A stretch of 64,000 bases of DNA from contig JAEOUA010000010.1 in the NCBI GenBank assembly GCA_016839555.1, forward strand, positions 256,001 through 320,000, given 5' to 3'. Source of the stretch: Promethearchaeota archaeon. GTDB lineage: Archaea; Asgardarchaeota; Lokiarchaeia; Sigyniarchaeales; SOKP01. The notes beneath the pieces were generated by a model, which saw only the letters and a list, made by a program, of their open reading frames with translations, was not told the DNA's origin and made no database searches. A program made the translations under genes and the position numbers. Positions 2,616 to 7,435 of this stretch are shown here, in pieces (position 1 is the first letter of the stretch; every line of letters starts with the position of its first letter).

Positions 2616-4298
2616 ATGAGCGAAAATATTAAATTTATCTATAAGGAGGAGTACTGGTTTATTAGTGCTTTTATTAATAGTATAAAAGTGGATATATCAG
2701 AAATTTCACAAAAGCTTGAAAATGCTATTAAAATGCGAATTTCTCAAATAACAAAAAAGGATGCTTATCGCCCAGAATTTGCCGATGAACTGCTTAATAT
2801 GGCGAAAAATATTTCACTTAATTGTCAATGGGTTGAATGCATTGATAATTTTCCCTATTATAACGAAAATACAAACAAATTTTACAATTCTTTAGGATAT
2901 TTTTATTTTGAAGTGGAGTATTATAAAAATAATCCTGAAAAGAAGAAACTCATTAAATCTAATTTAATTCAACAGATTCCTGGAATAATTTTATCTGAAT
3001 TGAAGAGAGAGAGTATCTTCTCACAGGAGGAAGTCTATTTTGATTTAGAAAGCCAAATTTTTATTTTTGCTACGTCTAATAATACAAACCCTCTTAAAAT
3101 CGAATGGACTAAAAATAAGATAGAGGAACATGATAAAGAACTTTCTTATTGGACGGTGTTATATTCAGGACAATGGGAAGATTATTCACCGAAGTTATAT
3201 AGAGATCGCGTTCAAGATAACTTATCTAATCGTCTTTCGGAATTGCATTTTATTAATAGAAACTCGGGATTTGTGTATATGGCAGAAGATAATTATGAAC
3301 GCTTTTTTGATTCGTATATGAAAGAAAATGTGCTACAGTCCACAGCCAAATTCAGAGCAATTATTTTTTCATTAAGAGAAATAAACAACTCCTTAGATTA
3401 TTTATTCTTGAATACCCATTCTGAAGCTTTACAAGATATTGGAATTTTAGAGGAAAAAATAAAAAATTTAAGATTTTTAAGAGGCGTTCTACAAAATACC
3501 TTAAGTTTAATCTATAATGAACTAGATTATAATAGAAGACAACATTACACTTCTGTACTAAAGCACCTAATTACAAAATTCGATTTGGATAATATAAAAG
3601 AGAGAGTAAACAATAAATTTAATTTAATTTACGATACTATGCAAGAGATTTATCAAAGACGTGCTGAACAAGATCAAGAAAAAACAGAGAAAGCATTAAA
3701 TATATTGAATTTTCTCTTAGGTGCAGGAATTATAGCTGATTTAGCGGGACTATTAATGACTACATTTGGATTAAGTGAAGGAGATTTTCCAGCAATATTT
3801 TTAAATGGTTTAATAGCGATTTTCATATCTTCTGTACTTGTATTTGCATTTATATATTACGCGTTAGTTAAATATAAGATTAAAAAAAAGAATATAAGAA
3901 GAGCTGTTGATGGTGTAATCCTTGATGGAAAGGGAAATATTCTATTAATTAAACGGAAATATCCTCCATTTAAGGATTTTTATGCCCTTCCAGGAGGATT
4001 TATAGAAAAAGGAGAGTCTCCAAAACAAGCAATAATGCGGGAAATAAAAGAAGAGACTAATTTGGAAGTAGAAATTGTTGAAAAAATTGGTGTTTATGAT
4101 AAACCTGGTAGAGATCCACGTGGTGAAATTCATTCCACAGCTTTTCTCTGTAAAATTATTGGTGATATCTCTAAATTAAAAGCAAGTATGGATTCAAAGG
4201 ACGCAAGTTTCACCCCCATAATGGAATTAAATCATATAAAATTTGCCTTTGATCATAAACAAATACTAAGAGATGCAGAACTTATCAAACAAGATTAG
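2616..4298 (+). CDS. Fusion protein: large soluble N-terminal domain + long helix + 2 TM (CorA-like topology) + C-terminal Nudix hydrolase (ADP-ribose pyrophosphatase-like)
   Basis: Intact Nudix box GGFIEKGESPKQAIMREIKEETNL plus PGRDPRG and AFDH motifs; two TM helices (LNILNFLLGAGIIADLAGLLM; AIFLNGLIAIFISSVLVFAFIYYALV) come before it. Confidence 0.8.
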   Translation: MSENIKFIYKEEYWFISAFINSIKVDISEISQKLENAIKMRISQITKKDAYRPEFADELLNMAKNISLNCQWVECIDNFPYYNENTNKFYNSLGYFYFEVEYYKNNPEKKKLIKSNLIQQIPGIILSELKRESIFSQEEVYFDLESQIFIFATSNNTNPLKIEWTKNKIEEHDKELSYWTVLYSGQWEDYSPKLYRDRVQDNLSNRLSELHFINRNSGFVYMAEDNYERFFDSYMKENVLQSTAKFRAIIFSLREINNSLDYLFLNTHSEALQDIGILEEKIKNLRFLRGVLQNTLSLIYNELDYNRRQHYTSVLKHLITKFDLDNIKERVNNKFNLIYDTMQEIYQRRAEQDQEKTEKALNILNFLLGAGIIADLAGLLMTTFGLSEGDFPAIFLNGLIAIFISSVLVFAFIYYALVKYKIKKKNIRRAVDGVILDGKGNILLIKRKYPPFKDFYALPGGFIEKGESPKQAIMREIKEETNLEVEIVEKIGVYDKPGRDPRGEIHSTAFLCKIIGDISKLKASMDSKDASFTPIMELNHIKFAFDHKQILRDAELIKQD

Positions 4299-4478: not shown

Positions 4479-5174
4479 TTATGTGTTTTTTTCTTCTTTT
4501 TTCTCTTCTTTCTCGGGTGGTTTAGGTGGGGGTTTAGGTTTTCGGGAAATGATTACCTTTGCATATCTAAGGATATCATCTTTAAATTTCCACCCTTCTT
4601 GAAGTATGTCAATAATAGTATTATTGGGAAGATCATCTCTTTCTAGAGAACTTAGTGCTTCATGTTTATCATAATCAAAATTATCTCCTTCCTTAGTTTC
4701 TAATGGTTGAGCGCCATAAGACTTTAATATATTCATAAATTGCTTATAGAATCCTGTTAATGGATTATTATCATCCAAATCTTTATTAGCACTTCTAAAA
4801 GAATCATATAAAGGTAAAAAATTTCTTAACACGTTAGCTGTATATTGGGTCATTAGTGATTTGCGAGCTTTATCCCATCGCTTCTGCGAGTTTTCGAATT
4901 CTGCCTGAAGGCGCATATATTTATCCTGCCATTCCTCATTTTTGTCTTTTAATTCCTGATTTTCTTTCTCTAAGTTAGATAAGTTTTCTTTGATTTTGAT
5001 AATTTTGTTTATCAACTCCTCTTTAGATAATTCTTTCAGTTCTAATCTGTATTTCTCCTCTTCATCAAGTTCTTTTTCTTTTTCAATTTCGATCTCATTT
5101 TCTTGCCTTTCTTTTTCCTCTGTTTGCTCGCCTATTTCAACCGAATTTTTACTTGCTTCTTCTTTATTATTCAT
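4479..5174 (-). CDS. grpE: Nucleotide exchange factor GrpE
   Basis: YMRLQAEFENSQKR, FLPLYDSF, FDYDKHEAL, ILQEGWKFKDDILRYAKVII; adjacent to dnaK. Confidence 0.95.
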   Translation of the reverse strand: MNNKEEASKNSVEIGEQTEEKERQENEIEIEKEKELDEEEKYRLELKELSKEELINKIIKIKENLSNLEKENQELKDKNEEWQDKYMRLQAEFENSQKRWDKARKSLMTQYTANVLRNFLPLYDSFRSANKDLDDNNPLTGFYKQFMNILKSYGAQPLETKEGDNFDYDKHEALSSLERDDLPNNTIIDILQEGWKFKDDILRYAKVIISRKPKPPPKPPEKEEKKEEKNT

Positions 5175-5235
5175 TCCTCAATCTTATGATAATAAATCTT
5201 TTAAGTAAATTATAGAAAAATTTCTTTAAAGTTTT

Positions 5236-5437: not shown

Positions 5438-7435
5438 ATGAGTGAAGGAGAAAAGAAAAAGAAGAAGCGAACAAGAAAGGAAAGAATAATTGGTATCGAT
5501 CTGGGAACCAGTAATAGTGCCTGCGCAGTTTTAAATGCTGTCGGTAAACCAGAAATTGTCCCCGCGGCAGAGGGAAGGACTCTGGGTGGGAAAGCTTTTC
5601 CATCTTATGTGGCATTTGATGAGGAAGGAAGAAAAATAGTGGGTGAGCCAGCTCGTAGACAAGCATTGTCAAATCCGGATGGTACAATAACAGGGATTAA
5701 ACGTAAAATGGGAACAAGCTATAAAGCTGAAATAAAAGTAGGTAGTGAAATAAAGGAATTTACACCCGAAGAGATCAGTGCAATGATTCTTAAAAAGATT
5801 AAAAACGATGCTTCAGATTATTTAGGAGAAGAAGTTCAAAAGGCAGTGATAACGGTTCCTGCATATTTTAATGATGCCCAACGTACATCTACAAAAAATG
5901 CGGGAGAAATCGCAGGCCTAGAAGTTGTTCGGATGATTAATGAACCTACTGCTGCTTGTTTAGCTTACGGATTAGATAGAGTTTCTGATGAATTATTAAA
6001 AATTTGTGTTTTAGACCTTGGAGGAGGAACATTCGACATAACATTAATGGAATATGGAGAGGGAGTTGTTGAAGTGCTTTCTACTGCAGGTGATACGCAA
6101 TTAGGTGGAAGAGATATGGATGATAAAATCACCGATTGGATCGCTGACCAATTTGAACAAAAAGAAGGTATTAATTTGAGTAATGACAAGAAAGCCATGA
6201 TTAGAGTAAAAGACGCCGCTGAAAAGGCAAAAATAGAACTTTCTACCACATTATCAACCACGATTAATCTGCCGTATATTTCTCAAAGACAGGGAGAACC
6301 TGTTCATTTAGAGATGGAATTAACAAGATCAAAATTGGAACAACTGGTAGAACCTGTCTTAAAGCGCCTAGATCCCATAATGAGAAGATCAATAGATGAT
6401 AGCAAATTATCCATAAATCAAATCGATAAAATCATATTAGTAGGTGGTCCTACACGGATGCCATGCGTTCAAGAGAGATTTCAGAAATTCTTTAATAAAG
6501 AACCAGAACATTCTGTTGATCCTATGGAATGCGTGGCGATTGGAGCTGCAATTCAAGCTGGTGTTATTGCAGGAGAGATTGATGATTTACTCTTATTAGA
6601 TGTGACTCCTCTTTCCTTAGGCGTAGAAACTTTAGGGGGGGTAAATACAAAATTAATTGAACGAAATACAACAATCCCTACTGAAAAGAAAAAAATATTT
6701 TCTACAGCAACAGATAATCAGCCTGCGGTGACAATTAATGTGCTTCAAGGGGAAAGAGCAATGGCAAATGATAATATTTCACTCGGGCAATTCCATTTGA
6801 CTGGAATTCCACCAGCTCCACGAGGAATACCACAAATAGAAGTTAAATTTTCCATCGATGCCGATGGGATTGTTCATGTGACTGCTAAGGATTTGGGAAC
6901 TGGAAAAGAACAAGGAATAACAGTTACCGGCGCGAAAGGACTTTCTGAGGATGAAATCCAGCGCAAAGTAAGAGAAGCAGAAAAATATGAAGAAGAAGAT
7001 AAAAAACTAAAAGAATTAATTGAGGCAAAAAACAATGCTGAATCTATGATTTATCAAACTCGAAAATTAATGGAAGAAAACAAAGACAAAATTCAAGAGG
7101 ATGAAAAACAACAGATTGAAAGCGCCATTAAATCTTTAGAAGAAGATGTAAAAACCGATGATGTTAATCGTATTAAGGCAGGAACAGAAAATCTGCAAAC
7201 GTCAATTCACGGGTTTTCTCAAAGAGTTTATGCTCAACAGGGACAACAGCAAGCCTATCAGCAAGCTGCAGAGCAAGCACAGAGAGCCGCTCAGGGCGCT
7301 GGTGATGTTCCACCAGGAGGGATGGGAGGAGCCACACCGAAAGGATCTGGAGGAGCCTCTTATAAATCTAAGAAGGATAAAGAATCCGAAGAAAAAGAAA
7401 ACGTGGTTGACGTTGAATGGGATGACGAGGAATAA
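5438..7435 (+). CDS. dnaK: Chaperone DnaK (Hsp70)
   Basis: [44 protein letters not shown]; short form lacking the N-terminal insertion, as in archaea and Gram-positives. Confidence 0.99.

Follow-up and report, generated by a model that had tools for sequence, protein, structure and literature searches.

We analyzed a 64,000-nt window of the genome of Promethearchaeota archaeon (assembly GCA_016839555.1, contig JAEOUA010000010.1, forward-strand positions 256,001-320,000), and all coordinates given below are those of this window unless another contig is named. Close to the start of the window lies the gene of P0001, a 560-amino-acid (aa) protein that belongs to an uncharacterised membrane protein family centred on Asgard archaea. 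The protein consists of an autonomous, conserved two-pass module with a cytoplasmic Nudix domain of the ADP-ribose (ADPR) type directly after the second transmembrane (TM) segment. Its novelty lies in a Nudix enzyme placed on an undescribed membrane scaffold, with a proposed logic like that of a channel-enzyme.

The open reading frame (ORF) of P0001 starts with ATG, contains no internal stops and begins at a position consistent with the N-termini of its homologues in the alignment. A hydropathy scan detected two TM segments (~363-384 and ~400-418), and Pfam assigned residues 428-553 to NUDIX (E 2.5e-21). No significant match to aa 1-425 was found in Pfam, NCBIfam or PADLOC. An AlphaFold2 model based on a 70-sequence alignment reached a pLDDT of 90.2 and a pTM of 0.84, while a single-sequence model of the whole protein (pLDDT 33) was useless and was discarded. 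In the model retained, an alpha/beta domain (1-222) is followed by long helices (224-268, 275-305, and 309-321), which form the stalk together with the beginning of a 60-residue helix (324-383). This last helix continues into TM1 and ends at a seven-residue loop; TM2 lies inside helix 391-425, and the Nudix fold comes after it (Table 1).

Every feature quoted in the original prediction, which had been made from the sequence of the window, was present in P0001: a soluble region, a two-TM hairpin, a basic stretch, and a complete Nudix domain with an RDPR motif. The Nudix box is intact, and GRDPRG occupies aa 498-503. Because the loop SEGDFP is acidic and the stretch after TM2 is strongly basic, both soluble parts are assigned to the cytoplasm, and the charge pattern around the TM hairpin thus supports the earlier placement of the two domains on one side of the membrane. 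Among homologues, the linker after TM2 keeps its basic composition and not its letter sequence.

Table 1 Features of P0001 and their coordinates in the 64,000-nt window
Feature	Residues (aa)	Coordinates	Strand	Basis
P0001, two-pass membrane protein with C-terminal Nudix domain	560 in total	2616..4298	+	ORF list, translation, homologues, AlphaFold2 model
Cytoplasmic alpha/beta domain outside known families	1-222	2616..3281	+	Alternating strands and helices in AlphaFold2 model
Most conserved segment	179-222	3150..3281	+	Conservation; mostly loops and two short strands in model
Helical stalk bearing conserved YNELDYNRRQHYT	223-360	3282..3695	+	AlphaFold2 secondary structure
TM1, conserved, polar (N365, G369, G371, D375)	361-384	3696..3767	+	Hydropathy, conservation
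Short acidic extracytoplasmic loop GLSEGDFP (E388, D390)	385-392	3768..3791	+	Sequence
TM2, weakly conserved	393-418	3792..3869	+	Hydropathy, 28-34% identity
Basic juxtamembrane linker KYKIKKKNIRR, positive-inside signal	419-429	3870..3902	+	Sequence
Nudix domain, NadM-Nudix/NrtR-like	430-553	3903..4274	+	
Nudix box, G-x5-E-x7-REIKEE-x-N-L	461-483	3996..4064	+	Invariant in 35 close homologues
RDPRG motif, common to ADPR-binding Nudix group	499-503	4110..4124	+	Sequence alignments

A divergent ABC-2 permease gene and an ABC ATPase gene lie upstream of the P0001 gene, and downstream of it are grpE (4479-5174, convergent) and then dnaK (5438-7435). The G+C content of dnaK (0.36-0.40) is above that of the surrounding DNA (0.23-0.33), and grpE is divergent from dnaK. 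At the start of the window there is a partial gene for an MtrH-like methyltransferase (3-602; Pfam MtrH, E 2.6e-31). A homologue with 77% identity to P0001 has the same order of neighbours, and other homologues stand in unrelated contexts.

The Nudix domain and its predicted ligand

The Nudix box of P0001 reads GGFIEKGESPKQAIMREIKEETNL (aa 460-483), with the residues G461-x5-E467-x7-R475 E476 I K E479 E480 T N482 L. Compared with the signature G-x5-E-x7-R-E-U-x-E-E-x-G-U, the box departs only at the last G, where P0001 and all close homologues have N. The family hidden Markov model (HMM), the fold and the box all place the domain in the Nudix superfamily (PF00293). The catalytic residues E467, R475, E476, E479, and E480 are invariant in the 35 close homologues, and all five are retained in 44 of the 48 fused members of a broad alignment, a set that includes P0181, which was classed as fused by its length alone. 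The box is degenerate in four members (P0121, P0129, P0137, and P0181). In P0121 the catalytic glutamates are gone (RLFVKK) but RDPRG and FDH are retained; both motifs are lost from P0129 and P0137, and the tail of P0181 shows no recognisable Nudix motifs and no Pfam NUDIX match. A eukaryotic copy, described below, has a weakened Nudix box (RSIMED).

The group nearest to this domain is NadM-Nudix/NrtR (COG1051; PDB 2qjo, 2qjt, 3gz8, and 2fml; Aquifex 2yyh). The best structural matches (score; Å/residues; identity) were with the Aquifex Nudix protein 2yyh (20.7; 2.0 Å/133; 39%), the Nudix domain of Shewanella NrtR with ADPR, 3gz8 (20.0; 1.9 Å/129; 26%), and the NadM-Nudix ADPR pyrophosphatases 2qjt (18.5; 3.2 Å/147; 29%) and 2qjo (18.1; 2.9 Å/145; 28%). 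Within RDPRG, residues R499, D500, R502, and G503 are invariant in close homologues, and the motif aligns with its counterparts in 2yyh, 3i9x, and 2fml. KYPP, ALPGGF, GRDPRG, and AFDH are common to the Nudix relatives in sequence alignments. By its closest relatives in sequence and structure and by its ligand-site motifs, the domain falls into the ADPR-binding NadM-NrtR subgroup. The best NCBIfam rows were NadM-Nudix enzymes and an ADPR-responsive repressor, all far under the equivalog cut-offs. It should be noted that NadM and NrtR proteins are soluble and carry a nicotinamide mononucleotide adenylyltransferase or a winged-helix DNA-binding domain, whereas the fusion partner here is a 425-aa membrane module.

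NrtR proteins whose Nudix signature is intact have ADPR pyrophosphatase activity, and those with a degenerate signature are ADPR sensors (PMC2330246). Following this pattern, we read the P0001-type Nudix domain as a predicted ADPR-type binder that is probably also a hydrolase in most members, with a substrate that we infer from similarity. P0121 and the eukaryotic copy with RSIMED suggest that ligand binding could matter without hydrolysis, as in NrtR.

The protein may instead be a membrane-tethered ADPR pyrophosphatase serving NAD turnover and salvage. The N-terminal module would then anchor or oligomerise the enzyme at the membrane or regulate it allosterically, and nothing would cross the bilayer. 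We regard this explanation as a close rival to the channel-like reading developed below, and as a somewhat doubtful one. The catalytic box that is intact in nearly all fused members argues for it, as do the closest relatives, which are NAD-metabolism Nudix proteins; the members that keep a Nudix domain with a dead catalytic box argue against it. Gene neighbourhoods also bear on this explanation. Of 80 species-level loci, 32 have nadA as the adjacent upstream gene, in divergent, head-to-head orientation, which favours an enzyme of NAD turnover and agrees weakly with a NAD/ADPR theme in general. However, the nadA linkage (loci L019-L068; e.g., L026:1957-2898 and 4687-5235) is confined to one 46-member clade of the protein tree, so we take it as inherited synteny and not as repeated acquisition; the P0001 gene belongs to the sister clade, which is without the nadA arrangement. 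In 39 of the 80 loci, the immediate downstream gene encodes a small hexapeptide-repeat protein of ~182 aa.

The membrane module and its likeness to CorA

Mean identity to the query was 69-73% in aa 179-222 compared with 44-51% in the whole alpha/beta domain, and it was 49-57% in TM1, 28-34% in TM2, and 55-56% in the Nudix domain. The conserved segment follows the pattern W..YSGQWEDYS...R...NLSNRLSELHF..RNSGF, which was used to retrieve relatives from genomes. In alignments spanning fused and unfused forms (with and without the Nudix domain), W164 and E209 of the alpha/beta domain are invariant, and G94, D143, W179, Y183, S184, G185, D189, Y190, R198, N202, L203, S204, R206, S208, H211, and S217 are near-invariant. 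The stalk residues N306, H310, and K334 are near-invariant as well. In TM1, N365 is conserved in 65/70 sequences, G369 in 61/70, and D or E at position 375 in 56/70; in the acidic loop, E388 is found in 35/70 and D390 in 33/70.

A conserved polar TM1 beside a variable TM2 fits an arrangement with TM1 facing a pore or a partner and TM2 facing lipid, and TM1 is a candidate pore-lining or ligand-contacting helix. The cytoplasmic loops are densely conserved at polar positions, which would suit a site of ligand binding or catalysis or an interface between subunits, and aa 179-222 are likewise a candidate ligand-binding, catalytic or interface site. For a mere anchor, a segment with higher conservation than the Nudix domain itself seems excessive, which speaks against the tethered pyrophosphatase.

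Searches of PDB sequences, Pfam and a large protein set gave the module no sequence relative beyond its own family. A profile of aa 1-425 gave only coiled-coil noise against PDB sequences (E>=0.05), and whole-model structure searches (Foldseek PDB, VIA-align wide, and ESM Atlas) found Nudix chains or the family itself and were uninformative for the N-terminal fold. A Pfam scan of 50 family members at E<=10 produced sub-threshold hits to DUF2207_C (19 members, in the region of the helix and TM hairpin) and to H-NS_N (14 members, in the coiled coil of the stalk), both of which were regarded as compositional. The DUF155/RMND1 HMM (PF02582) had no match in the hmmscan of the 50 members, and no DUF155 was detected in 41 genomes, for which the control genomes were equally silent. 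Oligomer prediction with four copies of aa 226-425 gave a median score of 0.32, against a mark of 0.42 and controls of 0.00-0.01, a result that is neither for nor against an oligomer.

Outside its own family, the ESM Atlas model for P0151, an unfused homologue, superposed best on an MJ0711_N (PF27233) cluster (TM-score 0.65/0.74, 316 residues) and on several unnamed bacterial clusters of two-TM proteins (TM-score 0.61-0.67). In one bacterial Atlas cluster near P0151, 31% of the members have a GNAT acetyltransferase domain. These bacterial clusters, MJ0711_N and MJ1566_N (PF27230) are likewise uncharacterised, none has a Nudix domain, and a feature search gave 0.93 for MJ1566_N. The likeness is one of structure and features, and no sequence link was found with a profile library that lacks PF27233 and PF27230.

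The dense polar conservation raises the question of whether the N-domain works as an enzyme or receptor in its own right, in a membrane-proximal process such as envelope or lipid metabolism, with the Nudix domain clearing a nucleotide-linked by-product or substrate other than ADPR. The invariant polar loop residues (W164, E209, D143, D189, R198, R206, H211, S204, S217, H310, and K334) resemble an active site or pocket, and the GNAT domains in the bacterial structural neighbours imply that the module may host different enzymes. However, the N-domain matched no enzyme family in Pfam, NCBIfam or PDB sequences, and RDPRG, AFDH and the structures that best match the Nudix domain indicate ADPR over nucleotide-sugars or lipids. 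In addition, no conserved envelope or lipid gene context was seen among the neighbourhoods examined, and we regard this explanation as distinctly unlikely.

CorA consists of an alpha/beta domain, long helices, a stalk helix continuous with TM1, then TM2 and a basic C-terminal flank. In its AlphaFold2 model, P0001 has the same order of secondary-structure elements, with the second TM segment C-terminal, which is a match of layout only. It shares with CorA/ZntB/Mrs2 (PF01544) this element order, the stalk helix running into a conserved TM1, the less conserved TM2, and the basic stretch after it. P0001-type proteins differ from CorA in being ~70 residues longer, in having a 130-aa domain after TM2, and in lacking GMN or GxN. 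TM1 of P0001 ends in TTFGLSEGD, where the family consensus is S-L-Q-E-G-D, and GMN occurs nowhere in the TM region. The original prediction had correctly pointed out that TFGLS (aa 383-387), where TM1 ends, stands in place of GMN. Its proposal that the protein is CorA-like holds for the element order and for the pattern of a conserved TM1 with a variable TM2, but it found no backing in a GMN motif, in Pfam or PDB-sequence matches, or in profile comparison. PF01544 matched none of the 50 family members at E<=10, and hhalign returned a probability of 0.6% against the source genome's own CorA, and of 0.2% (global) and 6.6% (local) against a profile of 21 Asgard CorA sequences. The likeness to CorA is thus one of predicted layout.

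The source genome encodes a canonical 366-aa CorA with YGMNF and MPEL on another contig, outside the window (C2:230-1330, L001), so the Nudix-fused protein is not the CorA of this organism. Among language-model neighbours, a cluster auto-named 'putative Magnesium transporter' scored 0.95 and a CorA-like cluster 0.84. Together with the shared order of parts, these neighbours would speak for genuine membership of the CorA/MIT metal-ion channel superfamily, with divergence and loss of the GMN filter. We consider such membership improbable; it concerns family and not mechanism, and it overlaps with the other readings. The failure to find a known channel signature with Pfam and hhalign counts in favour of the tethered pyrophosphatase.

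Distribution of the family and origin of the fusion

A search with aa 1-425 recovered 469 proteins, almost all of them 557-567 aa long with NUDIX and with 52-95% identity, from metagenome-assembled genomes (MAGs) labelled Loki-, Thor-, Hod-, Hermod-, Hel-, and Promethearchaeota. A six-frame search of Asgard genomes detected the module in 132 of 400, or about one third; among 90 high-quality genomes it was present in 32, and it was missing from whole families. The original prediction had proposed checking that the fusion is conserved across Asgard genomes, which it is, and a chimera or a lost stop codon is ruled out by such wide conservation. Hundreds of full-length homologues, plus native copies in Myxococcota, show that the fusion is no assembly artefact. 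Some Asgard genomes have two copies of the module, at times adjacent and divergent, and the source genome has one. At G250:C47:17901-21460 and G231:C168:483-4170, two diverged fused copies stand back to back on opposite strands.

Nudix-less relatives of 397-478 aa keep the whole N-domain and the TM hairpin and, in a representative search, include Heimdall-group and Hodarchaeales records. In a midpoint-rooted maximum-likelihood tree, the fused proteins form approximately one clade nested among two unfused groups, with the Nudix-less state branching earlier. No split Nudix gene was found within ~4 kb of the unfused forms in eight loci. The Nudix-less homologues, the single fused clade and the lack of a nearby Nudix gene indicate that the membrane module is autonomous and that the Nudix domain was added once. 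An N-module and TM hairpin conserved without any Nudix domain, either fused or adjacent, also weigh against the tethered pyrophosphatase. A profile of the unfused form searched against 5.8 billion proteins retrieved only its own family, with no bridge to bacterial families.

Outside Asgard archaea, the family was found at three myxobacterial loci in Polyangia/Myxococcales MAGs (L084, L086, and L087), with 40-41% identity to the family. Two of them hold complete fused genes encoding 572-577 aa with NUDIX (L084:3001-4719 and L086:2974-4707), and at the third (L087) there was a match for which the gene caller gave no complete ORF. The copies are taken as native to Myxococcota because the contigs have a GC content of 64-71%. 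Their neighbours are bacterial-type genes (thiolase, RPE65, and CheB-CheR), so the distribution looks like gene transfer between Asgard archaea and myxobacteria.

One eukaryotic cluster (P0135 and P0208; L003:175-3045) comes from a marine-protist transcriptome (MMETSP/JGI sample 3300016809). Its proteins of 849-956 aa show the same order of N-domain, two TM segments and Nudix domain, and have long low-complexity Ser/Gly-rich tails. The 7.8-kb contig has 46-51% GC and carries a Pho88 gene. In the tree, the eukaryotic homologue is sister to the prokaryotic MAG protein P0127 (SH-aLRT 99). No paper on this Nudix-fused membrane family was found in the literature, and the database names of the homologues ('NUDIX domain-containing protein' or '8-oxo-dGTP diphosphatase') follow the Nudix part alone.

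A possible channel-enzyme and its analogues

We tentatively favour the reading that the Nudix domain of P0001 is a head that senses and degrades ADPR, mounted on a conserved membrane module that may form a pore. The module would assemble into an oligomer, in which TM1 (N365, G369, G371, and D375) and the acidic loop would line a path across the membrane, moving or sensing something. The Nudix head, held on the basic linker right under TM2, would bind ADPR or a closely related nucleotide derived from NAD, and most members would also hydrolyse it to AMP and ribose 5-phosphate. Whether the head is occupied would determine the state of the module, which hydrolysis would reset. By analogy, the logic may be that of a channel-enzyme (TRPM2/NUDT9H) or of an effector bearing its own ligand-destroying enzyme (CRISPR CorA-NrN).

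The NUDT9-homology domain of TRPM2 is catalytically active in some orthologues and a pure binding module in others (PMC4917252, PMC5671594); in man it is a binding module (PMC5671594). Like TRPM2, P0001 sits in the membrane and ends in a cytoplasmic Nudix domain of the ADPR type, and its family shows a similar split into intact and degenerate forms. However, TRPM2 is an animal six-TM tetrameric TRP channel with a NUDT9-type Nudix domain, whereas the P0001 family has two TM segments, an unrelated N-domain and a Nudix domain of the NadM/NrtR type. No TRP or ion-channel Pfam match was found in P0001 or the 50 members. The two share no homology beyond the Nudix superfamily, and a channel function is something we infer here. 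It would be going further, and we think it unlikely, to see in the family a new group of CorA-shaped, sequence-unrelated oligomeric channels or transporters, one clade of which is ADPR-gated via a self-resetting Nudix head. Under that proposal, the protein would be to prokaryotes what the channel-enzyme TRPM2 is to animals, and a homologue with its architecture would survive in a marine eukaryote.

CRISPR-associated CorA effectors are encoded beside, or fused to, a phosphodiesterase that degrades their ligand SAM-AMP (PMC10600005). The type III CRISPR CorA proteins resemble P0001 in their large unique cytoplasmic N-domain, their C-terminal helical membrane domain and the ligand-degrading enzyme that is adjacent or fused (PMC10600005). 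These effectors, with an NrN/DEDD phosphodiesterase or a SAM-AMP lyase, have a CorA-like TM region, belong to cas10 loci and respond to SAM-AMP, whereas the P0001 family is without CorA similarity and without a cas or defence neighbourhood, and its enzyme is a Nudix domain. Neither an association with cas10 or type III systems nor a DHH/DEDD phosphodiesterase or SAM-AMP lyase was found for P0001, and no cas families were among the recurrent neighbours of the 80 homologues.

The CRISPR CorA precedent (PMC10600005) lends some plausibility to an anti-virus or abortive-infection effector, in which a NAD-derived signal made by enzymes of the TIR, SIR2 or PARP type would open the module and the Nudix domain would switch it off, as in CorA-NrN. 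The patchy distribution, the occasional second copies and the adjacent divergent paralogue pairs point the same way. At L120 (1-2048 and 6330-6934), a divergent homologue has a SIR2_2-TPR gene 5 kb upstream and a VapB/PIN pair directly upstream, and at L121 (12503-13714) another divergent homologue has a PARP-domain gene 4 kb downstream; these cases would favour an effector, but they are anecdotal and may be coincidence. However, the P0001 gene is flanked by ABC-2 transporter genes and by grpE and dnaK, and PADLOC reported only a generic Nudix domain at the locus. Neither TIR nor SIR2 recurred among 147 immediate neighbours (80 loci) or among 56 genes (15 divergent loci), which for TIR linkage is a small sample. 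The 80 loci show nadA and the hexapeptide-repeat gene and no defence genes, so the effector role offered in the original prediction finds no echo in gene context. Furthermore, 52-57% identity across named Asgard lineages is unusual for a defence effector. We give this role little chance.

Several points also weigh against the ADPR-controlled, possibly pore-forming module that we favour. Pfam, hhalign and PDB-sequence searches linked the protein to no known channel family, and the strongest conservation lies in the cytoplasmic loops of aa 179-222 and not in the membrane, which fits an enzyme or a protein-binding site as well. The nadA linkage is inherited and absent at the P0001 gene, hence weak functional evidence, and the predicted ADPR substrate is drawn from similarity, with the NCBIfam equivalog scores far under their cut-offs. 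The patchiness of the family (32/90 high-quality genomes) implies that it has no essential housekeeping function. It is the architecture that is observed; conductance, gating, oligomer and ligand are all argued from it by analogy.

If the Nudix domain does control a conductance, P0001 would be the first prokaryotic ADPR-linked channel-enzyme and would represent a new channel family among the archaea most closely related to eukaryotes. Should it prove to be a tethered ADPR pyrophosphatase, it would still stand for a large, well-conserved, unannotated family with the invariant motif YSGQW.DYS ... NLSNRLSELH. The fused, unfused and dead-box forms constitute a clean natural experiment that should bring the module's function within reach, and the P0001 family may couple NAD-breakdown signals to membrane activity.

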